Assembly (NCBI GenBank): GCA_963809485.1
Contig: CAWEJX010000001.1
Location: 288,001-352,000, forward strand
Length of the DNA: 64,000 nucleotides
Source of the DNA: an uncultured Acidobacteriota bacterium
GTDB lineage: Bacteria; Acidobacteriota; UBA6911
Reading direction: 5' to 3'
Shown: in pieces, positions 39,609 through 54,165 of the stretch
Numbering within the stretch: position 1 is the stretch's first letter
Layout: each line of letters begins with the position of its first letter
The notes under the pieces: generated by a model
Databases searched by the model: none
What the model was told of the DNA's origin: nothing
Seen by the model: only the letters and a program-made list of their open reading frames with translations
Position numbers and translations under genes: made by a program

Positions 39609-39655
39609 AATAACTTATAATGTGTATATATTTTTTATTCAGATTTTGAAGCAAT

Positions 39656-39671: not shown

Positions 39672-39902
39672 TACAAAAAATAGTCGGCAGCAGAACAAGC
39701 CGACATTTATTTCTCCGATCAGTTAGCACGCACACGCTCAAGTTGGCAGTTTGCTCCAATCCGATGATCCAGCTGGGGGAGAGTTAGATCCTCTGGATTT
39801 TGGCCGTTTAACTCGAGCATTACAAGATCAAGGACCAGGGCTCGATCGATCGATCCAACGGGGGATTCAGATTGATTCGGGACGGGGAACCGGAGGCCTT
39901 TC

Positions 39903-40484
39903 ATGAATGGAGTTCAGCAGACGGTGATTTACGAGAAAGCCATGGATCTGCAGTTTCTCAATGAGGTCTATCGCATTCCAGGCGGTGAAAAGATCAAGGA
40001 TTGCATCCAGTGCGGCACCTGCAGCGGATCCTGCCCGGTATCCTGGGCGATGGAGGAAACGCCCCGACAGATATTCGCCATGGTCCGGGCGGGGATGAGG
40101 GATAAGGTATTAGACAGCCTCACGATATGGACCTGTGCGTCCTGCTACCAGTGCATGCATCGCTGCCCTCAGAAGATCAAGATTACAGACATTATGTACA
40201 TGCTTAAGAGAATGGCCATACGGGAGAACCGTCAACGGAGTAAGAATGCGGGCATCATGTCGAGGTCATTCGTGGATATTGTTAACAAGAAAGGCCGCAA
40301 TCACGAGACCTCGCTAATGGTCAAAATCCTGCTGGGCACAAACCCACTTGGGGCGATATCCCTGGCACCTATCGGCATCGGTTTGTACACCCACCATCGC
40401 CTTCCCCTATTCGGGAAAGGAGTTCGCGATATTGTTGGCCTTCGAAAAATCGTTGCCAAAGCTCAAGAATTGGGAGGTGAATGA
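39903..40484 (+). CDS. hdrC: Heterodisulfide reductase subunit C
   Basis: CIQCGTCSGSCP and IWTCASCYQCMHRCP. Confidence 0.92.
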   Translation: MNGVQQTVIYEKAMDLQFLNEVYRIPGGEKIKDCIQCGTCSGSCPVSWAMEETPRQIFAMVRAGMRDKVLDSLTIWTCASCYQCMHRCPQKIKITDIMYMLKRMAIRENRQRSKNAGIMSRSFVDIVNKKGRNHETSLMVKILLGTNPLGAISLAPIGIGLYTHHRLPLFGKGVRDIVGLRKIVAKAQELGGE

Positions 40485-41350
40485 TGCGTTACGCTTATTA
40501 CCCCGGGTGTTCCCTGGAGGCGACTGGGAGACCCTATGAGGAATCGGTGAAAGCAGTTGCCAAGGCGTTGGGGATTGAGCTGGTGGAGCTTGAAGACTGG
40601 AACTGTTGTGGCGCCACGGCCTATATGAGCGTAAATGAAGTTCTCTCTTTCAGTTTGAGCGCCCGCAACCTGACCCAGGCAAAAAAGATAGGGGACACGT
40701 TGGTCACAGCCTGCAGTGCCTGCTATACGAATTTGCGCAAGACAGAAACCTATCTCGCTGATTTCCCGGAAATTAAGGGCAAAGTTGATGCAGCCCTAGC
40801 AGAGGCGGGTTTAAAGTATGAAGGAGGCGTTGTCACAAAGCACTTTCTTCAGACAGTTGTGCAGGACGTCGGGCTGGATCGGATCAAATCCCTCGTGAAA
40901 ATCCCTCTTTCAGGACTTCGGGTAGCTCCCTATTATGGCTGTCAAATAGCCAGACCTTATGGCATAGAGGACGACTCGGATAATCCGACCATGATGGACA
41001 GGCTGATTGAGGCAATCGGCGCAACTCCGACCAACTATCCGATGAAGACGATGTGCTGCGGCGGCTCTTTGATGGGAATACGCAAGGAGGTTGCGCTTCG
41101 CCTCTGCCGTAATTTGCTTCTCTGCGCCCAGCAGTATGGCGCGCAATGCGTTGTAGTAACGTGCCCGCTATGTCAAATGAACCTGGATGCGTTTCAATCG
41201 GCCATTAACAAGGCCTACGGCACGAGCTTCAATCTTCCAATAGTTTATTTCACTCAATTGATGGGCCTTGCGTTTGGACTGGATTCGAGGGGCCTGGGGC
41301 TGAAGGATTGCATCGTCTCGGCGACGGAAGCCATCGCGAAATACGCATAA
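40481..41350 (+). CDS. hdrB: Heterodisulfide reductase subunit B
   Basis: YYPGC, WNCCG, CSAC, YYGC, CCGG, CPLCQMNLD (two CCG domains). Confidence 0.95.
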   Translation: MMRYAYYPGCSLEATGRPYEESVKAVAKALGIELVELEDWNCCGATAYMSVNEVLSFSLSARNLTQAKKIGDTLVTACSACYTNLRKTETYLADFPEIKGKVDAALAEAGLKYEGGVVTKHFLQTVVQDVGLDRIKSLVKIPLSGLRVAPYYGCQIARPYGIEDDSDNPTMMDRLIEAIGATPTNYPMKTMCCGGSLMGIRKEVALRLCRNLLLCAQQYGAQCVVVTCPLCQMNLDAFQSAINKAYGTSFNLPIVYFTQLMGLAFGLDSRGLGLKDCIVSATEAIAKYA

Positions 41351-41359
41351 GGAGATCGC

Positions 41360-42223
41360 ATGAGTACCAAAATTGGCGTCTATGTGTGCCACTGCGGCAC
41401 GAACATCTCCGGCAAAGTGAACGTTGTTGATGTTGCCCAGTTTGCCAGGACCCTGCCCGGCGTGGTAGTAGCCCGGGAGTATAAATTCATGTGCTCGGAT
41501 CCGGGACAGATACTTATTGAGGACGACATCAAAAACCTGGGCCTTGACCGCATCGTGGTGGCCTCATGTTCCCCGCTGATGCACGAACCCACTTTCCGCG
41601 GCGCGTGCGAGAGGGCCAACGTAAACCGCTATCTGTTCCAGATGGCAAATATACGGGAGCATTGCTCGTGGGTAACCGTGGATCCGAACGCGGCAACCGA
41701 AAAAGCCAAGGCTCTGCTTGCCGGTGCAGTCGCCAAAGCCGGCAATCTCCAATCACTGCCGCACAAAACCGTTCCGGTAAATCCAGCGGCTCTTGTGGTG
41801 GGCGCAGGGATTGCGGGGATTCAGGCAGCTCTGGATATCGCCGATGCGGGGCGGACCGTGTATCTGGTCGAAAAACAGCCCTCGATAGGCGGGCACATGG
41901 CCCTGTTCGACAAGACTTTCCCAACCTTGGATTGCGCAGCCTGCATTCTGACTCCCAAGATGGTGCAAGTTGGCAAACATCCGAATATAAAGCTGATGCC
42001 TTCCAGCGAAGTTGAAAAAGTTGAAGGGTTTGTCGGCAACTTCAGTGTAAAGGTCCGACATAAGGCCACTTACGTCGATGCCACCAAATGCACCGGTTGT
42101 GGGCTTTGCTGGGAATCGTGCCCGGCGAGGAAAATCCCTGCAACCCGCGTAATACGCAAAGGCCAACTGGTTATAGGCAGCAGCAAGGGCGGCAACGGAT
42201 TCCTGAAAAGCTCTGTTCGATAA
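41360..42223 (+). CDS. hdrA: Heterodisulfide reductase subunit A, N-terminal half (split gene)
   Basis: IGVYVCHCG, MCSDPGQ, ASCSP..HE, NIREHCSW, GAGIAG, DKTFPTLDCAAC. Ends shortly after CTGCGLCWESCP with TAA TAG. Confidence 0.92.
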   Translation: MSTKIGVYVCHCGTNISGKVNVVDVAQFARTLPGVVVAREYKFMCSDPGQILIEDDIKNLGLDRIVVASCSPLMHEPTFRGACERANVNRYLFQMANIREHCSWVTVDPNAATEKAKALLAGAVAKAGNLQSLPHKTVPVNPAALVVGAGIAGIQAALDIADAGRTVYLVEKQPSIGGHMALFDKTFPTLDCAACILTPKMVQVGKHPNIKLMPSSEVEKVEGFVGNFSVKVRHKATYVDATKCTGCGLCWESCPARKIPATRVIRKGQLVIGSSKGGNGFLKSSVR

Positions 42224-42239
42224 TAGATGAAGGCAAAAA

Positions 42240-42605
42240 ATGACAAGCTCGAAAAGCCCCCATTCGATCACACTCGAAGAAGTGAGAAAGCTGCTGGAAG
42301 CAGAGGTGCTTAACGGCAACGACCTCTCGATAAAAGTCGCGGCTGTCGGAGCTGCGGACTTGCTGAGCGACGTGCTCAATACAAGCAAGACGGGAACACT
42401 GCTTTTAACCGGACTGGTCAGCCCACAAGTAATAAGGACTGCCATCGTGGCTGACCTCTGCGGCGTGGTTTTTGTACGCGGGAAGAAGCCCGGGGATGAG
42501 ATTCTCGCGCTCGCGCGGGAATCGAAAATTCCGGTTCTCGGCACGCGGCTCAAGATGTTTGAAGCCGCGGGGCGCCTATACACGGCAATTTCAGGGAACC
42601 GATGA
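42240..42605 (+). CDS. DRTGG domain protein
   Basis: ADLLSDVL, LLLTGL, VVFVRGKKP. Confidence 0.85.
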   Translation: MTSSKSPHSITLEEVRKLLEAEVLNGNDLSIKVAAVGAADLLSDVLNTSKTGTLLLTGLVSPQVIRTAIVADLCGVVFVRGKKPGDEILALARESKIPVLGTRLKMFEAAGRLYTAISGNR

Positions 42606-43033
42606 TGCATGAGGCATTCGAAAGTGTATATAACGTCCTGGGAAGGGACTTCTCCAATGCCGGAAAGGTTTCCACATCCATCAAGGATACGCTCAAGCGC
42701 CTTGGCGTCAGCCCCACGGTGGTGCGCCGCGTCGCAATCGTGTCCTACGAGGCAGAGATGAACCTGGTCATGTATGCGCATCGGGGAAGGGTCTCGCTCA
42801 GTGTCAGCCCGGATGCGGTGACGCTCAGCATCGACGATGAGGGGCCGGGGATCCCGAATATAGATCTCGCAATGCAGGAAGGCTACTCCACGGCTACTCC
42901 CGAAATGAGGGAAATGGGGTTCGGCGCGGGCATGGGGTTGCCGAACATTAAAAAAAACGCGGATGAATTTGACATCCGCTCCGAAGTCGGTCAAGGCACA
43001 AGCCTTTTCATTCGTGTAAGACAGGCTGCATAG
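42602..43033 (+). CDS. Anti-sigma-factor-like (RsbT-type) Ser/Thr kinase ATPase
   Basis: YEAEMN, DEGPGI..AMQEGYST, GFGAGMGLPN. Confidence 0.88.
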   Translation: MMHEAFESVYNVLGRDFSNAGKVSTSIKDTLKRLGVSPTVVRRVAIVSYEAEMNLVMYAHRGRVSLSVSPDAVTLSIDDEGPGIPNIDLAMQEGYSTATPEMREMGFGAGMGLPNIKKNADEFDIRSEVGQGTSLFIRVRQAA

Positions 43034-43039
43034 ACGATA

Positions 43040-44359
43040 ATGGCCCAATACCATCATTCATTGCGTTTTGATCCCGAAAGATGCGAAGGATGCATGTCCT
43101 GCATGCGCGCCTGCCCGACGGCGGCTGTGCGCATCCGCAAAGGCCGGGCCGTAAAACTAGCGGACCGGTGCATCGATTGCGGCGAGTGCATCCGGGTCTG
43201 TCCGCGGGCGGCGATCGTGCCCCTGACAGACCAGATGGCCGACCTGTCCAATTTCGAGCTGAAGGTGGCAATTCCCTCGCCTGCGTTGTACTCCCAGTTC
43301 GACTCGGAAGTTTTCCCGAGCATGATCTTTTCAGCGCTGAAACAATGCGGCTTCGACGACGTCGAGAGCGTTTCCCCCGCCTGCGACGCCGTGACCATTG
43401 CCACGGAGATTTTCCTGAACGAATATCGCGGCGAATACCCGCTGATTTCATCCTTTTGCCCGACAGTCGTCCGCCTCCTTCAGGTCAAGTATCCCGAGCT
43501 GGTAGATCAGCTTCTGCCCGTGCTGGCGCCCAGGGAAATTTCAGCCCGGGATGCGAAGGCGCGCAAATCCAGGGAAACAGGGCTGCCGTCCGAAAAAATC
43601 GGAGCCATCTACATCACGCCGTGTCCCTCCAAGATCGTCGCGATCCTGGAACATCCGGGGATGCGCCGATCCTACCTCGATGCCGCGGTATCCATAAGCG
43701 ATCTGTTCCAGACTCTGGCCGCTGCCGTGTCAAGGATTCAGGAGACCGAGCCTAACATCGACACTGTAGAATCGGCTTCGGGCCTCAGCTGGTCATTCCT
43801 GGAGAAGTTTCCACGGTCGCTGCCTGCGGAAAACACCCTGTCGGTTGCCGGACTGCCGAACGTCATACGGATCCTGGATGACATCGAAAAGGGGCGGCTG
43901 CGCAAATACCGGTACATTGAATGCCACGCTTGCCCCGAAGGATGCGTGGGAGGATGCCTTACTGTCGAAAATCCCTATCTGGCGCGCGGAAAGGCGATCA
44001 AGCTGCAGCAAAGCCTGCCTGCCGGGTGCATTGTGGACAGGCGCGAGGTCGAAGTTTCCTACCGGAAGAAGGAATTTTTAATGGATGAATACCTCGCAGG
44101 CCGTCCGTTGCGGCCATTGGATGCGGATATTTCGGCGGCCATTCATAAAATGAAGGAGCGGGACCGTATTTATGCAGACCTCCCAAAAATCGATTGCGGA
44201 GCTTGTGGCGCGCCTTCTTGCCGGGCATTCGCCGAAGACGTCGTGCTGGGAGAAGCCGACAAGGCTTCCTGCGTTTTTTTCTGGCAGAGAGATCTTGAGA
44301 ATCGCATTGAGCAGCTTGCCGACTTGGTCAGGACTCAAAAGCGAAGCATCGGAGGGTAA
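43040..44359 (+). CDS. [FeFe]-hydrogenase-like Fe-S protein (putative sensory type)
   Basis: N-terminal 2x[4Fe-4S]; divergent H-cluster motifs SSFCP, TPCPSK, ECHACPEGCVGG; C-terminal DCGACGAPSC FeS domain. Confidence 0.8.
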   Translation: MAQYHHSLRFDPERCEGCMSCMRACPTAAVRIRKGRAVKLADRCIDCGECIRVCPRAAIVPLTDQMADLSNFELKVAIPSPALYSQFDSEVFPSMIFSALKQCGFDDVESVSPACDAVTIATEIFLNEYRGEYPLISSFCPTVVRLLQVKYPELVDQLLPVLAPREISARDAKARKSRETGLPSEKIGAIYITPCPSKIVAILEHPGMRRSYLDAAVSISDLFQTLAAAVSRIQETEPNIDTVESASGLSWSFLEKFPRSLPAENTLSVAGLPNVIRILDDIEKGRLRKYRYIECHACPEGCVGGCLTVENPYLARGKAIKLQQSLPAGCIVDRREVEVSYRKKEFLMDEYLAGRPLRPLDADISAAIHKMKERDRIYADLPKIDCGACGAPSCRAFAEDVVLGEADKASCVFFWQRDLENRIEQLADLVRTQKRSIGG

Positions 44360-44361
44360 CC

Positions 44362-44712
44362 GTGAACATCGCTGATGCCGCAAAAAAGATCGACGGAACC
44401 ATAGTGGCCGGGACCGGAGCTGCCGGTCGTGAGATTCAGGGCGGCTATGCTTCGGATCTGCTCTCGGACGTCATGGGAAACAGCCGGGAGGGCGATATAT
44501 GGGTGACGATGCAGAAGCATGTGAACATCGTCGCCGTCGCCCAGCTGAACGGCCTGGCGGCAATTGTGCTGGTTAACGGGCGGGTGCCTGAGCCGGACAC
44601 GCTGTCCAGAGCCGAAGAAATGGCAATCCCGATCATATCCACTCCGCTGCAGGCTTTTGATGTCATCGGCATTCTATACGGTTTGGATATTCGCGGAAGG
44701 AGGCCCGTCTGA
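44362..44712 (+). CDS. DRTGG domain protein
   Basis: GGYASDLLSDVM, WVTMQKHVNIVAVA. Confidence 0.85.
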   Translation: MNIADAAKKIDGTIVAGTGAAGREIQGGYASDLLSDVMGNSREGDIWVTMQKHVNIVAVAQLNGLAAIVLVNGRVPEPDTLSRAEEMAIPIISTPLQAFDVIGILYGLDIRGRRPV

Positions 44713-44714
44713 GG

Positions 44715-46013
44715 GTGTTCATGGTCGATACACACATTCACACCTGCCTCTCACCTTGTGCGGAGCTGGACATGCATCCGGCGGCGCTGATCGATGCCGC
44801 CGTCTGCGCGGGGCTGGATTCCATCGCCATATGCGACCACAACTCGGCCGAGAACGCCGGTGCGGTTCAGCGCGCCGGGCTTGCGGCGGGGCTGGCCGTC
44901 ATCCCCGGGATGGAAATCACCAGTGCAGAGGAAGTTCACATCCTGGGGCTGCTGCCCGACCTGGAATCCGCAATGGCTCTCCAGTCCAAAGTTTACAGGT
45001 CGCTGCCCGGGCGAAACGACGAAAATACATTCGGGATGCAGGTCGTGGCGAATGAGTTCGCCGAAGTCCTCGGATTCAATGAGCACTTGCTCGCGGGAGC
45101 GACAACTCTGAGCCTCGAGGCGGTTGTGGCGGCGATTCACTCCGTGGATGGACTGGCTGTAGCTTCCCACGTGGACCGGGAAGGTTTTGGAATCATCGGC
45201 CAGCTGGGCTTCATTCCCCCGGAACTGCCCCTGGATGCGATCGAAATATCGCAGCGAATGCCGCTGACCCGGGCGCGGGCAACCTACGCTCCCAGAGGGG
45301 AGCACCCGATTCTCTGCGCATCCGACGCCCATGAACCCAAGGATATCGCACGGGCGGCGACCTATATCCTGATGGAGCAGGCCACTCTGCAGGAACTGCG
45401 CCGGGCCCTGACCGGAGAGGGAGGGCGCACAATTCTCGGCGGAGGAAGGCCCATGGAAGATCTTGCATTGCACATCCTGGATATAGTGCAGAACAGTCTG
45501 GAGGCCGGCGCGGCGATGATCGAGATCGGGATTAGCGAGGATCCAGGGGAAGACCGGATGACGATCGAAGTCCGGGACAACGGACGCGGAATGGATCCGG
45601 AAACCGTCGCGAAAGTCACCGATCCGTTTTTCACCACGCGAACAACCCGCAGGGTCGGCATGGGGCTTCCCCTTCTGGCCGCCGCAGCCAAAGCGGCCGG
45701 GGGAGAGCTTACCGTCGATTCAAAGCCCGGATCGGGGACACTTATCCGCGCGACCTTCCAGCACGGTCACATGGACAGGGCGCCGCTGGGCGATATCGAA
45801 ACGACTCTGATGGTGCTCCTGGCGGGTCAGCCGGACCGGAACATATGCTTCAGGCACCGGGTGAATGACCGGGAATTCGAGCTGGATTCCCGGGATTTCC
45901 TCGCGGCGGACATTGATCTGTCCTCGCCGATCGGGCTGGCGATTTTACGGGAGGCGATCCGTAAAGGCGAGGCCGGCTTGCAGTTTTCCGTACACGGCCG
46001 CCGTGGAGTGTAG
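44715..46013 (+). CDS. PHP-family phosphoesterase fused to HATPase_c domain
   Basis: DTHIHTCLSPC, ICDHN, GMEI..EEVH, SDAH, then MEDLALHILDIVQNS..DNGRGM..FFTTRTTRRVGMG. Confidence 0.85.
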   Translation: MFMVDTHIHTCLSPCAELDMHPAALIDAAVCAGLDSIAICDHNSAENAGAVQRAGLAAGLAVIPGMEITSAEEVHILGLLPDLESAMALQSKVYRSLPGRNDENTFGMQVVANEFAEVLGFNEHLLAGATTLSLEAVVAAIHSVDGLAVASHVDREGFGIIGQLGFIPPELPLDAIEISQRMPLTRARATYAPRGEHPILCASDAHEPKDIARAATYILMEQATLQELRRALTGEGGRTILGGGRPMEDLALHILDIVQNSLEAGAAMIEIGISEDPGEDRMTIEVRDNGRGMDPETVAKVTDPFFTTRTTRRVGMGLPLLAAAAKAAGGELTVDSKPGSGTLIRATFQHGHMDRAPLGDIETTLMVLLAGQPDRNICFRHRVNDREFELDSRDFLAADIDLSSPIGLAILREAIRKGEAGLQFSVHGRRGV

Positions 46014-46090
46014 GAAATGCCATTAACTGCGCCGGACGGAGTCGGCACCCCGTCCTTAGACAGAGCGCGATCAGTGAATCGGAGGCAAAT

Positions 46091-46597
46091 ATGGTTGATG
46101 TTTCGAAGGTAAAGGAAATCCTGGATCGGCACGGTGCGAAGCGCGAGCGCATGATTGCCATACTGCTCGACTGCCAGGAGGAATATTATCACCTGCCACG
46201 CGAAGTGCTGGAAGCAGTCTCGGCAGGAGTCAATATCCCCCTGGCATCGGTCCTGGCGATCGCGACCTTCTTTAAGGCCTTCAGCCTAAAACCAATCGGG
46301 CGCTATCCGATCCGCGTCTGCAACGGTACAGCCTGCAACATCAAGGGCGGACCTCTGCTGGTGGATGCCTTGGAGCGCGAACTGAAGATCAAGAAGGGAG
46401 ACACGACAGCGGACAACCTGTTCGGGCTGGACACGCTGAACTGCGTCGGCTGCTGCGGACTGGCTCCGGTCATCACGGTGGGCCAGGACGTGCACGGGAA
46501 AGTGAAGATATCCTCCATACCCAAGATGGTTAAGCAATACCGTCCGAAGGACCGGACGGATTCGAAGGAGGGGCAAGATGGCGAGACTGTCCATTGA
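46091..46597 (+). CDS. NuoE/HydC-like [2Fe-2S] subunit
   Basis: ATFFKAF, VCNGTAC, CVGCCGLAP. Confidence 0.92.
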   Translation: MVDVSKVKEILDRHGAKRERMIAILLDCQEEYYHLPREVLEAVSAGVNIPLASVLAIATFFKAFSLKPIGRYPIRVCNGTACNIKGGPLLVDALERELKIKKGDTTADNLFGLDTLNCVGCCGLAPVITVGQDVHGKVKISSIPKMVKQYRPKDRTDSKEGQDGETVH

Positions 46598-46961
46598 TGA
46601 CCTGAAGAAAATCCGGGAGGACGCAAAGCGCACATTGACTCTGAGATCGGGCGAAGCGCGCGCCAAGGTTACCATTCACATGGGCACCTGCGGCATTTCC
46701 GCAGGTGCGCGCAATGTCATGGGCGCCCTGCTGAAAGCGATTGAAGACCTCAAAATAACCGACGTGATTGTCACGACTTCTGGCTGCGCCGGACTGTGCA
46801 GCCGGGAGCCGATGGCGACAGTCGAAATTGCGGGTCAGACCCCCGTAAAATACGCGGACCTGAAACCCGAGTCCATCGTGAGAGTGCTCAAGGATCATGT
46901 TCTCGAGGGCAAAATTGTCACCGAGTATGCCCTCGCAAGCGGCTGTGAAACTACCGGCTAG
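46578..46961 (+). CDS. Thioredoxin-like [2Fe-2S] ferredoxin (HydD/HndB-like)
   Basis: HMGTCGISAGA, SGCAGLCSREP. Confidence 0.88.
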   Translation: MARLSIDDLKKIREDAKRTLTLRSGEARAKVTIHMGTCGISAGARNVMGALLKAIEDLKITDVIVTTSGCAGLCSREPMATVEIAGQTPVKYADLKPESIVRVLKDHVLEGKIVTEYALASGCETTG

Positions 46962-46987
46962 ACAGCCGGCTGGGAGGTGTGAATATC

Positions 46988-48829: not shown

Positions 48830-50583
48830 AAACCATCAAAATTAAGATCGACGATATCGAAACCGAAGCCGAGGACAGGACACCGATCCTCTCCATTGCG
48901 CAGAAACTCGGGATCAAGATCCCGACCCTGTGTCACCACCCGCTCCTGGAGCCATACGGCGTCTGCCGCATATGTACCGTCGAGGTAAGATCCGGCAAAC
49001 GTGTCCGCATGGTGACGGCGTGCAATTACCCCGCAACCAACGGCATCGAGGTTCTGACGAATTCGCCCCGCGTCCGGCGCGACCGGAGACTGATCCTCGA
49101 GTGGATGATGGCACGCTGCGGGCATGTCAAAGTCATCGAGGATCTGGCTGCAGAGTACGGCATCAAAGAACCCAGGTTCGGGCGCGGCGACGATGACTGC
49201 ATCCTGTGCGGGCTGTGCGTGCGCGTATGTTCTGATGTCGTCGGCGCCAATGTGCTCGGCTTCTTCAACCGCGGAGCGACGCGCGAGGTTTCGACTGCCT
49301 ATGGCGAAACCTCGGACAAATGCATCGCGTGCGGGTCCTGCGCTTTCGTATGCCCGACAGGAGCGATTCAGATAGAAAACGACTCGGCCCTGGTCCGCGA
49401 GGCTCTTCCGCTCGGTCCGCTGACTCCCATTCACGTCCCCTTCCTGCAGGCTGTGCCGCACCAGCCGGTAATCGATCGCGACTCCTGCATCCATTTCAAG
49501 ACCGGTGGATGCAAGGTCTGCGAAAAAGTCTGCGAGGTCAAGGCTGTGAATCATGCCCAGGAGGATGTGATCGAAAATATCGAGGTTGGAGCGGTTATCC
49601 TCGCCACAGGCTTTCAGCAGTTCGATGCCAAAAGAGTCTCGGAATACGGCTACGGCGTCTACCCGAATGTATTGACCGGCCTCGAGTTCGAAAAGATGAA
49701 CAGCGCTTCGGGCCCGACCGGTGGACAGATTATGCTGCAAAACGGGCAGGCGCCGAAAAGCGTGGGCATTATCCACTGCGTCGGAAGCCGCGACGAGCGC
49801 AACAATAAGTACTGCTCCCGCGTCTGCTGCATGTACGCATTGAAGTTCGCCCACCTGATCAAGGAAAAGACCGGAGCGGACGTGTATAACTTTTACATCG
49901 ACATGCGCTGCTTCGGGAAGGGCTACGAGGAATTCTATCACCGCCTGCTCGAGGAAGACGTGCGCTTCATCCGCGGACGCGCCGCGGCGATCACGGATTT
50001 CCCGTTCAACGAGCAGGAAGTCGGCAAACTGATCATCCGTGTGGAAGACACATTGATCGGCCAGGTGCGGCGCGTCCCTGTCGACATGGCCATCCTGGCT
50101 ACCGGCCTTGAGCCGGCGGCGGACGCCACGGATGTCGCCCATACTTTCAACATAAGCTGCGGTGGCGGATTCTTCACGGAACGGCATCCGAAACTTGCTC
50201 CGGTGTCCACCCCAACGGACGGCATATTTATTGCGGGCACGTGCCAGGGCCCGAAAGACATCCCTGATACGGTTGCACAGGCTGGCGCCGCCGCGTCCGC
50301 AGTCCAGTCCCTCATATCCAGGGGGGAGATCGAGGTTGAGTCGGCCACCAGCGTAGTGGATGCGGAAAAGTGCTCAGGCTGCCGACTCTGCAACACTCTC
50401 TGTTCGCTCTCGGCCATCACATTTGACGAAGAGAAAAAGGTCACCGTTATTAATGATGTATTGTGCAAGGGATGCGGCACCTGTGCCGCCGCGTGCCCCA
50501 GCAGCGCCATTCTGGCGCGGCACTTCACCGATGAACAGTTGTTCTCCGAAATAGAAGGGGTGCTGTATGACGTTCGAGCCTAA
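48826..50583 (+). CDS. Fusion of HydA/NuoG-like N-terminal Fe-S domain with HdrA C-terminal half
   Basis: IPTLC..GVCRIC..TAC [2Fe-2S], CILCGLCVRVC, CIACGSCAFVCP. Then HdrA motifs VPFLQAVP, VGAVILATG, GPTGG, HCVGSRD, CSRVCCMYALK, GPKDIP, CKGCGTC. Confidence 0.92.
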   Translation: MKTIKIKIDDIETEAEDRTPILSIAQKLGIKIPTLCHHPLLEPYGVCRICTVEVRSGKRVRMVTACNYPATNGIEVLTNSPRVRRDRRLILEWMMARCGHVKVIEDLAAEYGIKEPRFGRGDDDCILCGLCVRVCSDVVGANVLGFFNRGATREVSTAYGETSDKCIACGSCAFVCPTGAIQIENDSALVREALPLGPLTPIHVPFLQAVPHQPVIDRDSCIHFKTGGCKVCEKVCEVKAVNHAQEDVIENIEVGAVILATGFQQFDAKRVSEYGYGVYPNVLTGLEFEKMNSASGPTGGQIMLQNGQAPKSVGIIHCVGSRDERNNKYCSRVCCMYALKFAHLIKEKTGADVYNFYIDMRCFGKGYEEFYHRLLEEDVRFIRGRAAAITDFPFNEQEVGKLIIRVEDTLIGQVRRVPVDMAILATGLEPAADATDVAHTFNISCGGGFFTERHPKLAPVSTPTDGIFIAGTCQGPKDIPDTVAQAGAAASAVQSLISRGEIEVESATSVVDAEKCSGCRLCNTLCSLSAITFDEEKKVTVINDVLCKGCGTCAAACPSSAILARHFTDEQLFSEIEGVLYDVRA

Positions 50584-51007
50584 AATCGTTGGCATTCTCT
50601 GTAACTGGTGTTCCTACACCGGCGCGGATCTGGCGGGCACATCCCGCATCAAGTATTCACCAAACGTCCGGGTCGTCCGCGTCATGTGCTCCGGCAGGGT
50701 CGATCCCACCTTCATCCTGAAGGCGTTTGCCGACGGCGCGGACGGCGTGCTGGTGGCGGGCTGCCATCCCGGCGACTGCCATTACATCGAAGGGAATTAT
50801 AAGACCATTCGCCGCATGGCCCTTCTGAAGCACATGCTGGCGGACTACGGAATAGAGCCGGAGCGGTTTCGACTGGAATGGGTGTCGGCAGGCGAAGGAG
50901 ATCGTTGGGCTCATGTGGTCAATGCAATCACCGAAGATGTTCGGAAACTTGGGCCTACCAAAATAAAGCCACGGGCCAGAAAAAAGACATCTTCATCAGC
51001 GGCATAA
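50567..51007 (+). CDS. mvhD: Methyl-viologen-reducing hydrogenase delta subunit
   Basis: CNWCSYTGADLAG, RVMCSGRV, GCHPGDCHY..GN. Confidence 0.95.
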   Translation: MTFEPKIVGILCNWCSYTGADLAGTSRIKYSPNVRVVRVMCSGRVDPTFILKAFADGADGVLVAGCHPGDCHYIEGNYKTIRRMALLKHMLADYGIEPERFRLEWVSAGEGDRWAHVVNAITEDVRKLGPTKIKPRARKKTSSSAA

Positions 51008-51023
51008 GGGACATTAAGATGCG

Positions 51024-51058
51024 GTCGCAAGTCGCAAACCTGAGACCTGGGACCTGGG
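51024..51058. repeat. Heptamer tandem repeats between mvhD and mvhG
   Basis: gtcgcaa gtcgcaa acctgag acctggg acctggg. Confidence 0.55.
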
Positions 51059-51084
51059 ACTGAATTTTGAAAGTGGAGGCATGG

Positions 51085-52041
51085 ATGGCAAAACTTAAGC
51101 TGGCATCATATTGGGCTGCAGCCTGCGGAGGATGCGATGTCGCCATCCTCGATTTACACGAGAAAATACTCGACCTCGCCGCCGCAGCGGACATCGTCTT
51201 TTGGCCGATTGCCACGGATTTCAAATACAGCGATGTGGAGGCAATGCCCGACGAAAATATCGACGTAACTCTCTTCCACGGAGCCGTGCGCAACTCGGAA
51301 AATGAGCACCTGGCCCGTCTTTTGAGGGCAAAATCCAAGGTTCTTGTGGCATTCGGATCGTGCGCCCATATCGGCGGAATTCCGGGGCTGGCAAACCTTT
51401 TCACAAAAGAAGAGATTTTCAAGCGCATCTACCACGAAACGCCGTCCACCGTGAATGCGGAGAATTTCGAGCCTCAGCCGAAGCTGGCGGTAGCCGAAGG
51501 AGAGGTGACAATCCCGGAATTCTACAACACGGTCAAGACGCTCGACCAGACGGTGGACGTCGACTATTACATGCCCGGCTGCCCCCCGACGCCCAAGCAG
51601 ATCTGGAATGTCGTCCAGGCGATTGTGGGCGGGCAGCTTCCGCCCAAGGGTTCGGTTATCGGGGCCTCCGAAAAGACCCAGTGTGACGAATGTCCGCGCC
51701 CGAGGAAGGAAAAGAAGATTACGGGTTTCAAGCGGATAGCAACCGCCCAGCCGGATCCGGACACCTGTTTCCTGGAGCAGGGATTTCTGTGCCTGGGTCC
51801 CGTTACGCGAGGCGGATGCGATGCCCGGTGCCAGAATTCCGGCGTCCCCTGCCGAGGCTGTTATGGTTCTCCGGCCGGTGTCCTTGACATGGGGGCCAAA
51901 GCCATATCGGCGATAGCATCGGTCATCGAGGCTAAAGAAGAAGCCGAAGTGGAACGTATCATCCAGCAAATCCCGGATACTCTCCGCAGTTTTAACCGGT
52001 TCGGAATTCCAGCATCACTCATCACAAGGAAAATATCATGA
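51085..52041 (+). CDS. mvhG: Group 3c [NiFe]-hydrogenase small subunit
   Basis: ACGGC, AFGSCA..GG, PGCPP, CDEC, CFLEQG.LCLGP, CRGC. Confidence 0.92.
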   Translation: MAKLKLASYWAAACGGCDVAILDLHEKILDLAAAADIVFWPIATDFKYSDVEAMPDENIDVTLFHGAVRNSENEHLARLLRAKSKVLVAFGSCAHIGGIPGLANLFTKEEIFKRIYHETPSTVNAENFEPQPKLAVAEGEVTIPEFYNTVKTLDQTVDVDYYMPGCPPTPKQIWNVVQAIVGGQLPPKGSVIGASEKTQCDECPRPRKEKKITGFKRIATAQPDPDTCFLEQGFLCLGPVTRGGCDARCQNSGVPCRGCYGSPAGVLDMGAKAISAIASVIEAKEEAEVERIIQQIPDTLRSFNRFGIPASLITRKIS

Positions 52042-53501
52042 AACGCATTTCGATTGATCCCATTACAAGGCTTGAAGGGCATGGAAAGATAGACATCTTC
52101 CTCGCAGACGACGGAAGTGTAGCGAACTGCTACTTCCAGGTGCCCGAGCTGCGCGGATTCGAGAAGTTCGTAGAGGGGATGCCGATAGAGGAAGTCCCGC
52201 GGGTGGTGTCGCGGATCTGCGGCGTCTGACCGGCCTCACACCACCTGGCCTCGGGTAAGGCCGCAGATGCAGTCTACAAGGTCGATCCGCCTCCTGCAGC
52301 AAAAAAGCTCCGCGAGATGTACAACGCGGCAGCCTTCGTTCATAGCCACATCGCCCACTTCTATGCCCTCGCAGCACCGGACTTTGTCTTGGGTCCTGAT
52401 TCCGATCCCGCAAAACGCAACATTTTGGGTGTCGTTGAAAAAGTGGGCATACCGATAGCAGGCGAGGTTTTGAAACACCGCGCCATCGCCCAGGATATCC
52501 AGATTACGGTGGGGGGCAGGTCTACGCATCCCGTGTGGACTCTTCCCGGAGGAGTATCCAAGGGAATAACCGAAGAGCAGCGCAAAGAAATAATAGAAAA
52601 AGCAAAATCCTGCGTGGAGTTCTCAAAGTTCTCCCTGAAGCTGTTCGAAGACGTAGTGCTGAAGAACAAGGCCTACCTGGATATCATCCTGTCCGACATT
52701 TTCGAAATGGACAGCTACTGGATTGGCACTGTCGATTCAAAGAATTGCGTGAACTTCTACCATGGCGATCACAGAATAGTGGATCAAAAAGGCAAGGAAG
52801 TATTCCGGTACAAGGACCACGAGTATCTCGACTTCATCTCGGAGCGCGTGGAGAAATACAGCTATCTGAAATTCCCATATCTGAAAAAGATCGGCTGGCA
52901 GGGGTTTGTGGATGGGCCGTCTTCGGGTGTGTATATGGCAACTCCGCTGTCCAGGCTGAACGCAGCCGATGGCATGGCTACTCCATTGGCCCAGGAAGAG
53001 TATGAAAAAATGTACAGCACTCTGGGAGGCAAGCCCATAAAGAAGCTTATGGCGACGCACTGGGCCAGGCTTGTCGAATTGCTTTATGCAGCGGAAAGAC
53101 TGCTGGAACTGGCACAGGATCCGGAGACAGCTTCGCCCAACATCCGGACGCTTCCCACGGCAACGCCTGAAGAGGGCGTGGGAATCGTGGAGGCGATGCG
53201 CGGAATTCTCACCCATCATTACAAAACGGACAAGAACGGCCTTGTTACGGAAGCCAACCTGATCGTCGGCACGACCAACAACAATGCTCCGATCTCGATG
53301 TCCATCAAACGTGCCGCGCAGAAATTGATCCAGCCGGGCAAGGAAGTCGGACAGGGTCTGCTGAACATGGTCGAAATGGCCTTCCGGCTCTACGATCCCT
53401 GCTTCTCCTGCGCGACGCACTCGCTGCCCGGCCAGATGCCCTTAATCGTGGAAGTGATCAACGCCGACGGAAAAATCATTCATCGGGAGGGCCGGAACTA
53501 G
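52038..53501 (+). CDS. mvhA: Group 3c [NiFe]-hydrogenase large subunit with in-frame UGA (probable selenocysteine)
   Basis: ORFs 52038-52229 and 52317-53501 are in one frame, joined by a single TGA (52227-52229) in RICGV*PASHHLAS. Also TRLEGHG and DPCFSCATH plus a cleavable C-terminal tail. Confidence 0.9.
52245..52266 (+). promoter_or_regulatory. Bacterial SECIS-like hairpin
   Basis: Stem GGCCT/AGGCC with G-rich loop CGGGTA, 22 nt after the UGA. Confidence 0.6.
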
Positions 53502-53661
53502 CGGGCGCAGAGGACCTCCGCCAGGTTGAACGGTTGCACCTTGAACGTTGAAAGAACACCCTGGGTCCACAAGGCGACATGGAAAACCTTTGAGCTCGGA
53601 TACGAACAATCCCGGTCCCGACACCTTGAAATCTGCACGCATTGGCGGGGCGACAAAAACC

Positions 53662-54165
53662 ATGAAGGTCCGCATTATCGGTCTGGGCAACTCGATACTC
53701 ACCGACGACGGCGTTGGCATCTACACCGCCCGCGAGGTGGCAAGACGTCTATCCGCGGCCGGCCTCCGGGACCGCGTGGACATTGTGGAATCGGAAGTGG
53801 CAGGGTTTGCCCTTATGGAACTGATGGCCGGTTGGGATCGCATCATTCTGATCGATTCCGTCCAATTCGAGGGATTGGAATCCGGCACAGTGATCCGTAT
53901 CGCGCCCGAAGATCTTCACACGTCCCTGCGACTGCGTTCCGTGCACGACATCGATCTGCCGACAGCGCTTGAACTGGCCCGACGGATGGGAATCGCCATG
54001 CCCCGCGATCTCATGATTTTCGGCATTCAGGCGGAGGACTGGCTGACGCTCGGCGAATCCCTGACCGATGCGGCAGAACGCGGCATGAAGACAGCCGCAG
54101 ACCTCGTCCTTTCCGAACTGGATCGGGAAGGAGCAATGAATCCGAGATCCGAAATTCGGAACTGA
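53662..54165 (+). CDS. Hydrogenase maturation protease
   Basis: IGLGNSILTDDGVG, ILIDS, SVHD; follows mvhA. Confidence 0.92.
   Translation: MKVRIIGLGNSILTDDGVGIYTAREVARRLSAAGLRDRVDIVESEVAGFALMELMAGWDRIILIDSVQFEGLESGTVIRIAPEDLHTSLRLRSVHDIDLPTALELARRMGIAMPRDLMIFGIQAEDWLTLGESLTDAAERGMKTAADLVLSELDREGAMNPRSEIRN

Follow-up and report, generated by a model that had tools for sequence, protein, structure and literature searches.

A split hdrA gene with one half fused to a BfuA-like domain in a hybrid hdr-bfu-mvh operon of an uncultured Acidobacteriota bacterium

In the window analysed here (a stretch of 64,000 nucleotides from an uncultured Acidobacteriota bacterium), an operon of hdr and mvh genes carries hdrA in two pieces, which are separated by 6.6 kb. 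This raises the questions of whether the pieces are remnants of a broken gene or parts of a working HdrA, and of what enzyme such a locus would encode.

Layout of the locus

The operon occupies positions 39903-54165 of the + strand in the order hdrC, hdrB, hdrA-N, a five-gene regulatory block, bfuC/nuoE, a hydD-like gene, bfuB/hydB, the fusion gene, mvhD, mvhG, mvhA and hycI. The features are as follows:

39263..39902, +, presumed promoter/regulatory region 5' of hdrC (gene-free, 640 bp)
39903..40484, +, hdrC, 2x[4Fe-4S] subunit (Pfam Fer4 dicluster families, best E 1.8e-10)
40481..41350, +, hdrB, disulfide-reducing subunit with two CCG domains (Pfam CCG x2, E 2.9e-28)
41360..42223, +, hdrA-N, 287 aa (aligned to HdrA 5odc_A residues 5-258, E 1.1e-97)
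42240..42605, +, DRTGG-domain protein, regulatory block 1 of 5 (Pfam PF07085, E 1.8e-8)
42602..43033, +, HATPase_c-only protein, block 2 of 5 (Pfam PF02518/PF13581)
43040..44359, +, HydS-like [FeFe]-hydrogenase-like protein, block 3 of 5 (Pfam Fe_hyd_lg_C, E 1.2e-28; FeS PF04060, E 1.6e-13; Fer4)
44362..44712, +, second DRTGG-domain protein, block 4 of 5 (Pfam PF07085, E 6.5e-7)
44715..46013, +, PHP phosphoesterase + HATPase_c protein, block 5 of 5 (Pfam PHP, PHP_C, HATPase_c)
46091..46597, +, bfuC/hydC/nuoE-like [2Fe-2S] subunit (Pfam 2Fe-2S_thioredx, E 3.5e-42)
46578..46961, +, hydD-like small thioredoxin-like protein, 127 aa (weak likeness to the HydB N-terminal domain, E 2e-5)
46979..48829, +, bfuB/hydB, long bifurcating-type form, 616 aa (Pfam Complex1_51K, NADH_4Fe-4S, SLBB, Fer4)
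48826..50583, +, fusion gene, BfuA-like::HdrA-C, 585 aa (residues 1-184 BfuA-like, HdrA C-part from about 185)
50567..51007, +, mvhD, [2Fe-2S] adaptor between hydrogenase and HdrA (Pfam FlpD, E 7.9e-56)
51067..52041, +, mvhG, [NiFe] hydrogenase small subunit (Pfam Oxidored_q6, E 8.8e-26)
52038..53501, +, mvhA, [NiFe] hydrogenase large subunit (487-codon frame with an in-frame TGA at 52227-52229)
53548..54165, +, hycI-type hydrogenase maturation protease (Pfam HycI, E 2.2e-13)
54166-56265, +, Cache/HAMP sensor histidine kinase (Pfam), directly abutting hycI
56243-57673, +, sigma-54-type response regulator (Pfam), 3' of the histidine kinase

Every gene lies where the initial annotation had placed it. 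Coordinates, Pfam and alignments all bear out the split hdrA described there, with eight genes between the pieces (DRTGG, HATPase, HydS-like Fe_hyd_lg_C+FeS, DRTGG, PHP+HATPase, NuoE/HydC, HydD-like and long-form HydB) and mvhDGA after them. Its identification of a long-form HydB was likewise correct: the protein has an N-terminal [2Fe-2S] domain, an FMN/NAD(H) site, a [4Fe-4S] cluster and a C-terminal 2x[4Fe-4S] domain, and its residues 5-610 align end-to-end with NiFe-HydB 7t2r_B (E 4.4e-233), including the N- and C-terminal Cys motifs. HdrB aligns over its full length with the methanogen HdrB 8rvu_b (E 2.3e-50), and all ten Cys of both CCG motifs fall on Cys. In the HydS-like protein, an H-cluster-type domain is combined with 2x[4Fe-4S] and, at the C-terminus, a 'putative Fe-S' domain; from work on sensory hydrogenases, we presume it to be a H2 or redox sensor. 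The first DRTGG gene accompanies Bfu genes in other loci too. No Pfam family was found in the HydD-like protein, whose gene is present in 21 of the 26 listed fused loci holding both nuoE and hydB.

Genes of the operon overlap or are separated by gaps of at most 77 nt, and no terminator-like site was found between them on the + strand. The presumed promoter region has a GC content of 0.49 (0.52-0.62 across the operon) and one sigma-70-like site (39604-39632), a number not above chance expectation; no sigma-54 consensus was found on its + strand. Judging by gene spacing, the two-component pair at 54166..57673 is possibly co-transcribed with the operon. Support from RNA is weak: what maps to the operon is short contigs of relatives from two metatranscriptome libraries, a kind of library that can contain DNA. 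Elsewhere the same genome carries a canonical hdr-mvh cluster, a HydABC-like cluster and a BamEFGHI-like cluster; given the first two, the hybrid operon is not a replacement.

The two halves of HdrA

The hdrA-N gene encodes the N-terminal domain of HdrA together with the Rossmann half of the FAD domain, and continues into the inserted ferredoxin domain as far as its first motif (CxxCxxCxxxCP), after which comes a short tail that is conserved. In the fusion protein, HdrA resumes at about residue 185 with the other Cys motif of that inserted domain, followed by the remaining half of the FAD domain and, at the C-terminus, a 2x[4Fe-4S] domain; residues 149-581 of the fusion align with residues 230-651 of HdrA 9sfi_A (E 1.6e-116). 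The junction lies inside the inserted ferredoxin domain, between its two Cys motifs, with almost no linker and with the second BfuA motif in register with the first motif of HdrA itself in the 9sfi_A alignment. At the same site of HdrA, another locus (L030) carries an inserted GltD/NfnB-like NAD(P)H module.

Residues 1-184 of the fusion form a wire with [2Fe-2S] and 2x[4Fe-4S] motifs. The initial annotation had read this domain as HydA whose H-cluster domain was replaced in frame by HdrA. The alignments did not support this identity: the closest match is the short Type-2 BfuA of WorABCSL (9mqx_A; residues 5-186, E 6e-38, without large gaps), whereas the alignment with HydA falls into two pieces and the region of the His-ligated cluster is absent. 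The N-domain is therefore a short wire of the BamI/WorA type rather than a HydA stripped of its H-cluster domain.

Both halves appear to be maintained rather than decaying. In 30 fusion homologues, C36/47/50/66, C125/128/131/135, C166/169/172/176, C221/229/232/236, K340 and C516-C557 are invariant; these include every one of the 16 Cys in the BfuA-like part and the second HdrA motif. The HdrA-N residues C244, C247, C250 and C254 are invariant in the 22 split forms compared. The GxGxxG Rossmann motif is on HdrA-N, while K340 in the CCMYALK motif of the fusion aligns with a Lys of 5odc_A, which presumably contacts flavin N5. A Lys of this kind is reported for BamE in the available part of a preprint (10.64898/2026.04.10.717634). 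From this distribution of motifs, neither half is predicted to work alone, and the survival of a half-motif on each protein is consistent with a ferredoxin domain assembled from both. In the dN/dS test suggested initially, both halves are under purifying selection (dN/dS ~0.02-0.10), with values of 0.027-0.051 for hdrA-N and within 0.022-0.104 for the two fusion halves, similar to the neighbouring genes.

The combination of a Fer2_4/NuoG-N domain with HdrA-C, for which a wider search had been suggested, is widespread, and an HdrA-N neighbour and conserved synteny are found wherever the DNA reaches far enough. Among the 120 protein clusters listed, 112 match the fusion over 98% or more of its length, with identities of 57-98%, and stand-alone HdrA-N homologues have a length of 276-295 aa in all 120 clusters listed. 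The fused arrangement is shared by 30 loci out of the 80 retained from genomes; by their record titles, these 30 derive from Acidobacteriota, Aminicenantes, Fidelibacterota, Planctomycetota, Nitrospirales, Desulfobacterales, a Clostridia MAG and an 'archaeon' MAG, and hence from several phyla. A junction-spanning frame is present in 25 of the 401 sampled genomes of the phylum of the window. In all 22 fused loci whose DNA extends far enough upstream, hdrC-hdrB-hdrA-N precede the fusion, and mvhD is the next gene after it in 28 of the 29 that continue downstream, the exception (L028) having a second hdrA in between. Contigs of relatives from other runs (~94-96% identity) span both the hydB/fusion boundary and the junction.

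Association of the halves, which the initial annotation had also anticipated, was supported by a complex model with an ipSAE of 0.85 (0.00 for the best of three controls); 58 of 80 solved complexes attain this mark, as do 2 of 110 mismatched pairs. Runs agreed in at least 96% of contacts, with partner pLDDT of at least 88. HdrA structures have already been solved, so this pass may reflect that likeness. The modelled interface, calculated without cofactors or cluster distances, includes HdrA-N 243-275 with fusion 124-175 and 220-243. In this model HdrA-N and the fusion associate, and the BfuA ferredoxin domain packs against the rebuilt inserted ferredoxin domain. The initial reading is supported in part: its anatomy is right, and the results on conservation, selection and modelled association favour it, but the replacement of a HydA domain is not supported. 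A literature search found no published description of the split-and-fused hdrA/Bfu architecture, in line with its having gone unrecognised in that annotation.

Proposed enzyme and electron route

The most economical reading would be that a single complex connects H2, NAD(H), ferredoxin and a disulfide, and we expect with good confidence that the products of the locus do form one complex. A bacterial hdrCBA-mvhDGA operon would have acquired a Bfu-type NAD(H)/ferredoxin module with its regulatory block, inserted inside hdrA between the Cys motifs of the inserted ferredoxin domain. HdrA-N would reassemble with the HdrA-C part into a working HdrA, with the FAD site and the inserted ferredoxin domain each built from two chains, and the covalently joined BfuA-like domain would be an iron-sulfur wire to BfuBC, which would bind the fusion. 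H2 would be oxidised by MvhAG and the electrons carried by MvhD to the FAD of HdrA, where bifurcation would send the high-potential electron via HdrC to the disulfide site of HdrB. The low-potential electron would pass through the inserted ferredoxin domain to BfuA and BfuBC, and not to free ferredoxin, and NAD+ and ferredoxin would receive electrons from BfuBC. The electrical contact point and the direction of flow are likewise proposals. Given one complex, the junction and the modelled interface incline us modestly towards output-side wiring; the whole statement (a single Mvh-Hdr-Bfu enzyme, the Bfu wire at the output domain and a H2-to-Bfu route) is offered tentatively, with a little more doubt than belief. 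If it is one enzyme, it probably joins two different energy-coupling machines, in an operon conserved in soil and sediment bacteria.

The Bfu core usually receives electrons at about the H2 potential, and we know of no precedent for feeding very low-potential electrons into it, which counts against output-side wiring. To our knowledge, class II benzoyl-CoA reductase is the only characterised enzyme joining Bfu and HdrA modules. This coupling is documented structurally in the available part of the preprint (10.64898/2026.04.10.717634), so the novelty of the present locus is a variant and not a principle. In that enzyme Bfu feeds HdrA, whereas the reverse order is proposed here; grafting of the Bfu wire at the output ferredoxin domain suggests the opposite wiring. 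The low-potential output is assigned to the inserted ferredoxin domain there as well (10.64898/2026.04.10.717634, available text), and in methanogen supercomplexes the polyferredoxins MvhB or FmdF, when docked, receive the low-potential electron from HA5 and HA6 (PMC13580544, available text).

Possible, but on the unlikely side, is one complex with Bam-type wiring, in which the BfuA-like domain would sit on the input side of the FAD in HdrA, at the node of the C-terminal ferredoxin domain and MvhD. Bfu (NADH and reduced ferredoxin) and Mvh (H2) would share one mid-potential node, which could interconvert H2 and NAD(H) plus ferredoxin, like NiFe-HydABCSL, or use either donor for FAD-based bifurcation to disulfide and free ferredoxin. 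This is the path of the solved class II benzoyl-CoA reductase, in which, by the available text, BamI, a homologue of BfuA, touches the HdrA-like BamE at its C-terminal ferredoxin domain, the input side reached via BamF/MvhD, and electrons run from BamI cluster I3 to E1/E2 in that ferredoxin-like domain, then to BamF and FAD (10.64898/2026.04.10.717634). In two variant loci, L082 and L083, a BamI appears to be joined to a BamE-like tandem HdrA, with mvhDGA following in L083, and thus Bam-type wiring could hold for the hybrid locus too. The BamEFGHI-like cluster of the genome and the closeness of HydB to that of the NiFe bifurcating hydrogenase also point this way, and the role would suit fermenters shedding NADH and reduced ferredoxin as H2, but for H2/NADH/ferredoxin exchange the genome already has the HydABC-like cluster. 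The fusion point in the inserted (output) domain, almost linker-free and with motifs in register, and the modelled placing of fusion 124-175 on the HdrA-N tail (243-275) also argue against an input-side contact.

Since gene neighbourhood alone is weak evidence of binding, the operon might encode two enzymes, Bfu with some other partner and Mvh-Hdr with a split HdrA, the BfuA-like domain being an appendage that does not bind BfuBC. We regard this as improbable: Pfam annotation of the operon genes revealed no other BfuA-type or catalytic partner, and nuoE and hydB lie 5' of the fusion gene in all 26 listed fused loci reaching that far, either directly adjoining it or with only the regulatory block intervening. 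In addition, all three cluster motifs of the BfuA-like domain, one [2Fe-2S] and two [4Fe-4S], are invariant, and the domain can be aligned from end to end with WorA, a protein bound to WorBC in 9MQX (PMC12318220, available text).

A gene found split in a MAG is often an artefact or a pseudogene, but a broken hdrA, with a mobile hydrogenase-type cassette and decaying pieces or an assembly chimera, is hardly credible here in view of the recurrence of this split and fusion across 30 loci assembled independently and across 112 full-length clusters among those listed, the fixed length of HdrA-N, dN/dS of at most ~0.1 with invariant ligands, and a junction crossed by contigs of other runs.

A candidate selenocysteine codon in mvhA

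The TGA at 52227-52229 occupies the second Cys position of the N-terminal RxCGxC nickel-binding motif of MvhA. With TGA read as U, the protein aligns over residues 2-464 with MvhA 5odc_F (E 4.2e-111). The codon at this site is TGA in 9 loci and Cys in 61 gene copies. Both tRNA-SeC and SelA are present in the genome, and a hairpin lies downstream of the TGA, which probably encodes selenocysteine.

Organization of the operon and its subunits

The operon at 39903-54165 on the plus strand is composed of head-to-tail open reading frames; adjacent genes overlap or are separated by no more than 77 nt. It is preceded (upstream of 39903) by 640 bp without genes and with a GC content lower than that of the operon. 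The gene order derived from Pfam assignments confirms the proposal of the initial annotation that eight genes resembling those of a hydrogenase operon are located between two pieces of hdrA and are followed by mvhDGA.

Genes of the operon and the features on which their assignments are based
39903-40484, plus strand: HdrC (Pfam Fer4 dicluster)
40481-41350, plus strand: HdrB (two Pfam CCG domains)
41360-42223, plus strand: HdrA-N, 287 aa (FAD Rossmann motif and one Fer4 motif)
42240-42605, plus strand: DRTGG protein (Pfam)
42602-43033, plus strand: HATPase_c protein (Pfam)
43040-44359, plus strand: HydS-like protein with Fe_hyd_lg_C, FeS and Fer4 domains (Pfam)
44362-44712, plus strand: second DRTGG protein (Pfam)
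44715-46013, plus strand: PHP and HATPase_c protein (Pfam)
46091-46597, plus strand: NuoE-type protein, BfuC (Pfam 2Fe-2S_thioredx, E 3.5e-42)
46578-46961, plus strand: HydD-like protein, 127 aa (no Pfam family)
46979-48829, plus strand: NuoF-type protein, BfuB, 616 aa (Pfam SLBB; NADH_4Fe-4S, E 1.7e-31; Complex1_51K, E 8.4e-43; C-terminal Fer4 pair)
48826-50583, plus strand: fusion protein, 585 aa (Pfam Fer2_4 and several Fer4 motifs)
50567-51007, plus strand: MvhD (Pfam FlpD)
51067-52041, plus strand: MvhG (Pfam Oxidored_q6)
52038-53501, plus strand: MvhA (Pfam NiFeSe_Hases)
53548-54165, plus strand: HycI (Pfam HycI)

HdrA is not encoded as a single polypeptide with FAD and six [4Fe-4S] clusters, but by two genes 6.6 kb apart, as had been noted from the sequence. 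HdrA-N aligns with residues 5-258 of HdrA 5odc_A (E 1.1e-97), and residues 149-581 of the fusion protein align with residues 230-651 of HdrA 9sfi_A (E 1.6e-116); the cluster motifs of HdrA are complete once both products are counted together. The cut lies inside the inserted ferredoxin domain of HdrA, with HdrA-N ending in the first CxxCxxCxxxCP motif (C244-C254) and a short tail, and the HdrA part of the fusion resuming ahead of the second motif (C221, C229, C232, C236). In the 9sfi_A alignment, the last Cys motif of the N-terminal, BfuA-like domain of the fusion is in register with the first motif of HdrA itself, which leaves almost no linker. HdrA-N carries the GxGxxG of the FAD fold, and the fusion protein carries the Lys of the CCMYALK motif (K340), aligned to a Lys of 5odc_A; a Lys of this type presumably touches flavin N5. 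For BamE of class II benzoyl-CoA reductase, a conserved Lys at flavin N5 is reported in the available part of a preprint (bioRxiv 10.64898/2026.04.10.717634). Judging from these motifs, it would be impossible for HdrA-N or the fusion protein to be a flavoprotein on its own.

The N-terminal domain of the fusion (residues 4-184) aligns with residues 5-186 of the 247-aa BfuA of WorABCSL (9mqx_A, E 6e-38; PDB 9MQX is identified as the WorABCSL structure in the accessible text of PMC12318220), and the alignment with HydA of a bifurcating [FeFe] hydrogenase (8a6t_A) falls into two pieces, skipping residues 94-142. The domain has the cluster motifs of a Type 2 BfuA, a length like that of WorA or BamI and no His-ligated cluster; Type 2 BfuA proteins are described as short three-cluster wires in the available text of PMC9304861. 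Because the HydA alignment lacks the intervening stretch, we assign the domain to these short wires and reject the suggestion that it is a HydA whose H-cluster domain has been replaced in frame by HdrA.

BfuB is of the long form, in line with the initial annotation: residues 5-610 align with residues 3-597 of HydB from a NiFe bifurcating hydrogenase (7t2r_B, E 4.4e-233), with both the N-terminal C13/C18/C50/C54 (CxxxxC...CxxxC) and the C-terminal CxxCxxCxxxC ferredoxin motifs aligned to Cys, so that the extra clusters of the bifurcating form are accounted for. Pfam domains for the FMN/NAD(H) site and the NuoF [4Fe-4S] cluster are present in BfuB, and the gene for the NuoE-like [2Fe-2S] protein BfuC lies alongside. 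Membership in the Bfu family is thus assigned by sequence features, and bifurcation coupling NAD(H) and ferredoxin to a third substrate is predicted. The HydD-like protein shows a weak likeness to the N-terminal thioredoxin-like domain of HydB (E 2e-5).

HdrB contains two CCG domains with the ligands of the non-cubane clusters, is accompanied by HdrC, and can be aligned end to end with HdrB of methanogens (E 2e-50), all ten CCG-domain Cys being in place. The hydrogenase genes encode MvhD, MvhG and an MvhA with the Ni-Fe motifs RxCGxC and DPCxxC (here DPCFSC); residues 2-464 of MvhA align with 5odc_F (E 4.2e-111) when an in-frame TGA (52227-52229) is read as selenocysteine (Sec). This codon occupies the position of the second Cys in the N-terminal motif RxCGxC (RICGVC), where TGA occurs in nine of the loci compared below and TGC or TGT in 61 gene copies. 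A hairpin with a G-rich loop starts about 17 nt past the TGA, with compensatory stem differences in two related loci (L013 and L017), and the genome of the organism encodes tRNA-SeC and SelA. The TGA therefore probably encodes Sec. A selenoprotein review (PMC13188914) places Sec of MvhA/VhuA/VhuU only at the C-terminal UxxC position and [NiFeSe] hydrogenases only in sulfate reducers and methanogens, as far as its available text goes, and the MvhA site may be a separate finding in itself.

Several features lie at the borders of the operon. At 54166-57673, a Cache/HAMP sensor histidine kinase gene begins one base past the hycI stop and overlaps a gene for a sigma-54 response regulator; this pair may be part of the control of the operon. 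The upstream gene at 37152-39263, a glmS-type glutamine-fructose-6-phosphate aminotransferase (GATase and two SIS domains), is ordinary and outside the operon. A pattern scan found no plus-strand sigma-54 promoter in 39263-39902, and the pattern was not in excess across the window (23 matches against 32.6 expected in shuffles); promoter and terminator scans inside the operon gave nothing above chance. The block of five regulatory genes (42240-46013) is probably of a kind typical of HydABC operons; PMC6288185 makes no mention of it.

Conservation, distribution and history of the fusion

The architecture is widespread and maintained by selection. When 5.8 billion proteins were searched for relatives of the fusion protein, 112 of the 120 clusters listed matched it over 98% or more of its length (57-98% identity), and the HdrA-N relatives are 276-295 aa long in all 120 clusters listed. 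A genome scan with one genome per species found 496 relatives, from which 80 loci were kept and annotated by tblastn with 17 window proteins. The BfuA-like::HdrA-C frame, a NuoG-N type domain joined to HdrA-C, is present in 30 of these loci (L001-L025, L027-L029, L071, and L034 with a frame problem); L026 is interrupted by an N stretch. The 49 unsplit HdrA gene copies in the kept loci mostly belong to plain hdrCBA-mvhDGA operons.

Synteny is conserved wherever the DNA reaches. Of the 30 fused loci, 22 have hdrC-hdrB-hdrA-N ahead of the fusion gene, and the other eight stop earlier at a contig edge, so no fused locus with enough DNA is without these genes. Upstream nuoE and hydB are found in all 26 listed fused loci with sufficient reach, and the HydD-like gene in 21 of these. 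The fusion is followed by mvhD-mvhG-mvhA, apart from contig ends and two Desulfobacterales loci with mvhD only. In the latter (L022 and L024), the operon comprises hdrCB, a short hdrA-N, nuoE, hydB, the fusion and mvhD without mvhG or mvhA, and further hdrA and hdrCB genes come after mvhD; this variant would be an Hdr-Bfu assembly without hydrogenase. The regulatory block is an optional and mobile element of the operon. Most Acidobacteriota and Aminicenantes loci have it between hdrA-N and nuoE, six fused loci (L011, L014, L016, L023, L027 and L028) have none, and in the two Planctomycetota loci and in L083 it separates hydB from the fusion gene.

According to their record titles, the fused loci come from Acidobacteriota (several orders), Aminicenantes, Neomarinimicrobiota/Fidelibacterota, Planctomycetota, Nitrospirales and Desulfobacterales, as well as from one Clostridia MAG and one 'archaeon' MAG. 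A 161-residue query across the junction was run against 401 sampled genomes of the phylum of the window; 25 genomes gave matches over its whole length, in frames of 533-618 aa, and three genomes have two copies. The frame was present in two of four sampled genomes of the same genus and in four of seven of the same family, and this patchy distribution fits an accessory, transferable operon.

In a comparison with five relatives (Nei-Gojobori), dN/dS was 0.027-0.051 in HdrA-N; within the fusion, the BfuA-like part gave 0.022-0.091 and the HdrA-C part 0.034-0.104. These values are similar to those of neighbouring genes and are rough, because dS was saturated (>1) in every comparison. Thus, neither half shows relaxed selection. 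In 30 fusion homologues, the 12 Cys of the [2Fe-2S] motif and the two BfuA [4Fe-4S] motifs are invariant, as are the second inserted-domain motif of HdrA, the Cys of its C-terminal ferredoxin domain and K340, and 22 split HdrA-N sequences all retain the orphan first motif (C244/247/250/254). Four four-Cys motifs are thereby kept over two chains, which is enough for two complete 2x[4Fe-4S] domains; we infer from the sequences that the BfuA domain would be formed in cis and the inserted domain of HdrA rebuilt in trans. The C-x7-C-x2-C-x3-C form of the second HdrA motif was rejected as a signature of the fused form, being shared by 19 unsplit bacterial HdrAs.

A quick maximum likelihood tree of the HdrA C-part (86 rows) placed the fused forms in several groups, with at least four changes between the fused and unsplit states and a weakly supported backbone. 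The clade of the window comprises ten fused Acidobacteriota sequences, grouped with unsplit Myxococcota sequences. In a repeat under LG+G4 with 12 rows dropped (six long or aberrant, six of unclear state), the AU test of a single fused clade, a group named after the first tree had been seen, gave p = 0.053. These data neither show nor reject a single origin; the fused forms may go back to one origin, with later transfer and recombination, or to several. A single 780-aa HdrA from a Syntrophobacteraceae MAG (L035, 2811-5153) has an extra 2x[4Fe-4S] segment at the split site of the window, clusters in the tree with the fused forms of Desulfobacterales and could be an intermediate that is still unsplit. 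In five of the related loci (L022, L045, L054, L061 and L078), the HdrA N-part has an in-frame TGA in LDC(S/A)x[TGA]I, at which the window has Cys (LDCAACIL), and their sequences point to a Sec/Cys pair; HdrA is counted as a selenoprotein family in the available text of PMC13188914.

Public sequencing runs were compared with sampled words of 47500-51500. The best run shared 0.24 of the words and none reached half; runs sharing words were labelled as metagenomes of soil, wetland, sediment and freshwater. In one DNA run (X1), contigs cross the hydB/fusion boundary (record 5, 48484-48902) and the fusion junction (record 6, 49206-49641). The junction is also spanned by a metatranscriptome contig (X18, record 12, 49288-49505), and two metatranscriptome libraries contain near-identical short contigs on mvhD, mvhG, mvhA and hycI. 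These contigs, which derive from relatives (mostly 90-95% identity) and from libraries that can contain DNA, are a weak hint of presence, perhaps of expression; bins left uncovered by the contigs are uninformative, and so are the listed 'joints', which have short sides and low likeness.

Assembly and electron transfer

Complex prediction with the fusion protein (30-row alignment) and HdrA-N (22-row alignment) gave an ipSAE of 0.85 against 0.00 for the best of three controls, passing a mark that 58 of 80 solved complexes attain, compared with 2 of 110 mismatched pairs. Contact agreement between runs was at least 96% and partner pLDDT at least 88. The tightest pairs join fusion residues 253-260 with HdrA-N residues 143-148 in a common sheet of the FAD fold, and the interface also includes HdrA-N 243-275, fusion 124-175 (the BfuA ferredoxin domain) and fusion 220-243. 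The model, which the initial annotation had envisaged for a larger set of subunits, suggests that the two chains can rebuild HdrA; its score may stem from likeness, because HdrA structures have already been solved.

In the Mvh-Hdr complex, electrons from H2 pass to the HdrA FAD, from where the high-potential electron continues to HdrB and the low-potential electron moves through HA3 to the HA5/HA6 clusters of the inserted domain and on to free ferredoxin or a docked polyferredoxin (PMC13580544, in part). The inserted ferredoxin domain is also assigned as the low-potential output of benzoyl-CoA reductase, whose BamGH-BamI module feeds the input side of BamE, from I3 to E1/E2 of the C-terminal ferredoxin-like domain and then to BamF and FAD (bioRxiv 10.64898/2026.04.10.717634, available part). 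In the window, the BfuA-like wire is attached precisely at the output domain of HdrA, and the model packs it there too. The same site is occupied in a 1122-aa Myxococcales HdrA (L030, 7709-11077), which groups near the clade of the window in the HdrA C-part tree and carries a GltD/NfnB-like NAD(P)H module between both Cys motifs of the inserted domain.

Because the wire is joined and packed at the output domain, where the L030 protein holds its own module, sequence and model favour an output-side wiring. Electrons from H2 would enter the HdrA FAD, from which one branch would lead to a disulfide and the other through the output ferredoxin domain to BfuA and BfuBC, and thus to NAD+ and ferredoxin. 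By rough standard potentials, a sink of NAD+ plus ferredoxin provides more driving force for H2 uptake than ferredoxin alone; H2 uptake is therefore the favoured direction, and the fully reversed reaction looks unfavourable.

The main rival is an input-side wiring of the Bam type, in which H2 would exchange electrons with NAD(H) and ferredoxin and the FAD would be bypassed. It gains weight from two loci in which a BamI-like wire and a BamE-like tandem HdrA are in one chain: the frames at L082 6366-9593 and L083 3503-6757 (minus strand) encode 1076 and 1085 aa, respectively, in the order BfuA-like::HdrA-C'::HdrA-N::HdrA-C. In L083, hydB and the regulatory block lie upstream and mvhDGA downstream of this frame, and L082 has a short, Rossmann-only hdrA-N piece ahead of nuoE.

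On the favoured output-side wiring, we tentatively propose, with less than even confidence, a two-stage bifurcation cascade in the order opposite to that of benzoyl-CoA reductase. The low-potential output of HdrA would be hard-wired into the flavin/iron-sulfur site of a Bfu core; HdrA would be obligately split, with its FAD site and output ferredoxin domain each built from two chains, and the [NiFe] site would in some lineages contain Sec in its N-terminal motif. If so, disulfide-pulled oxidation of H2 would charge NAD+ and ferredoxin without a diffusible carrier between the bifurcation sites.

The genome of the window also encodes a BamEFGHI-like cluster (G000:C1:477537-485248, minus strand), a canonical hdr-mvh cluster (G000:C6:331596-339730) and a HydABC-like cluster (G000:C7:85729-93021), and the hybrid is therefore an addition to these systems, not a replacement. 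More hdr-like clusters on contigs C3 and C17 mark an organism rich in bifurcating modules.

Relation to known systems

To our knowledge, only four enzyme families bifurcate electrons, a process that lets anaerobes live near the thermodynamic limit. The chaining of modules from different families is, as far as we know, barely understood, with one structure in a 2026 preprint, and class II benzoyl-CoA reductase is the only characterised enzyme known to us that joins a HydBC/Bfu-type to an HdrA-type module. In the Geobacter metallireducens complex, Bam[(BC)2DEFGHI]2, BamGH and the wire BamI are joined to the HdrA-type BamE via the MvhD-like BamF (bioRxiv 10.64898/2026.04.10.717634, available part). 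The principle of coupling Bfu to HdrA is thus already known, as the initial annotation recognized in naming the Bam modules a partial precedent, and the window locus is a variant of it. Both clusters combine a Bfu module, an HdrA-type module and an MvhD-like adaptor, which is a likeness in principle, not membership, and the N-terminal domain of the fusion has the three-cluster make-up of BamI. However, Pfam identified no BamB (tungsten, aldehyde oxidoreductase family), BamC or HdrD-like BamD among the 19 products of 37152-57673, and a [NiFe] hydrogenase and true HdrBC are present instead. In addition, the wire is fused to the output domain of HdrA in the window and docked on the C-terminal domain in Bam, and HdrA is split in the former, whereas BamE is tandem-fused.

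The window locus has all six subunit types of methanogen MvhADG-HdrABC (group 3c; PDB 5ODC, 8RVU and 9SFI) in closely alignable form, retaining the Lys of the FAD site, the clusters of HdrA and all 10 Cys of HdrB, and it shares the hdrCBA-mvhDGA order with most of the 49 unsplit bacterial HdrA copies. In contrast to the methanogen complex, its HdrA consists of two polypeptides, cut inside the inserted ferredoxin domain, with a BfuA-like domain on the C-terminal piece; the two halves are separated by three Bfu genes and, in this lineage, by five regulatory genes as well, and MvhA has a probable Sec in its N-terminal motif. CoM-S-S-CoB is not to be assumed as the disulfide in this bacterial locus. 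In the Mvh/Fdh-Hdr-Fmd supercomplexes (PMC13580544, in part), electrons from HA5/HA6 pass straight into a bound Fe-S wire, the logic proposed here, but there the wire to the CO2-reducing enzyme is a polyferredoxin in its own right (MvhB or FmdF), whereas in the window a fused BfuA-like domain would lead to an NAD(H)/ferredoxin module.

Relative to the Bfu family (NiFe-HydABCSL 7T2R, FeFe-HydABC 7Q4V/8A6T and WorABCSL 9MQX), the window has a BfuB complete in all domains of the bifurcating form, a BfuC and a short Type 2 BfuA best matched by WorA, but this BfuA is attached to half of another bifurcating flavoprotein. It is not a member of the NiFe-HydABCSL group, which has a long HydA-type BfuA bound to the hydrogenase and no HdrABC or MvhD; the window has a short BfuA, an Mvh-type hydrogenase, MvhD and HdrABC. 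In the available main text of Schut et al. 2022 (PMC9304861), Bam-Bfu is the sole Hdr-linked (HdrA-containing) class named; the survey distinguishes 57 BfuB clades, and 17-18 clades are unassigned. A split HdrA with an inserted Bfu module, or an 'Hdr-Bfu' or 'Mvh-Bfu' class, was not found in the full-text literature searched, including the available parts of PMC9304861, PMC11216029, PMC7509429, PMC9469722, PMC8528874, PMC6085437, PMC7325909 and PMC5736913; survey supplements and a 2021 HdrA review may cover such genes. The architecture, which is real, conserved and under selection, is apparently undescribed, and we infer on strong grounds that its products form a single Mvh-Hdr-Bfu complex.

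The locus represents a second, widespread natural combination of HdrA and Bfu, in this case tied to H2. Its carriers belong to Acidobacteriota and other phyla, with the nearest relatives in soil, wetland and sediment metagenomes, and in anoxic soils it may connect H2, NAD(H), ferredoxin and thiol/disulfide pools by a route that has been overlooked. The enzyme makes it testable whether a Bfu core accepts electrons from another bifurcating flavin, and the natural split marks where HdrA tolerates cutting and module grafting, which is useful for mechanistic work and engineering. The L030 HdrA has the identical insertion site and likewise a pyridine-nucleotide-linked module, but in that protein a simple flavoprotein module is contained in one polypeptide, as opposed to a split gene with a three-subunit bifurcating module, and the L030 protein presumably resembles the 'HdrL'-type proteins of sulfate reducers.
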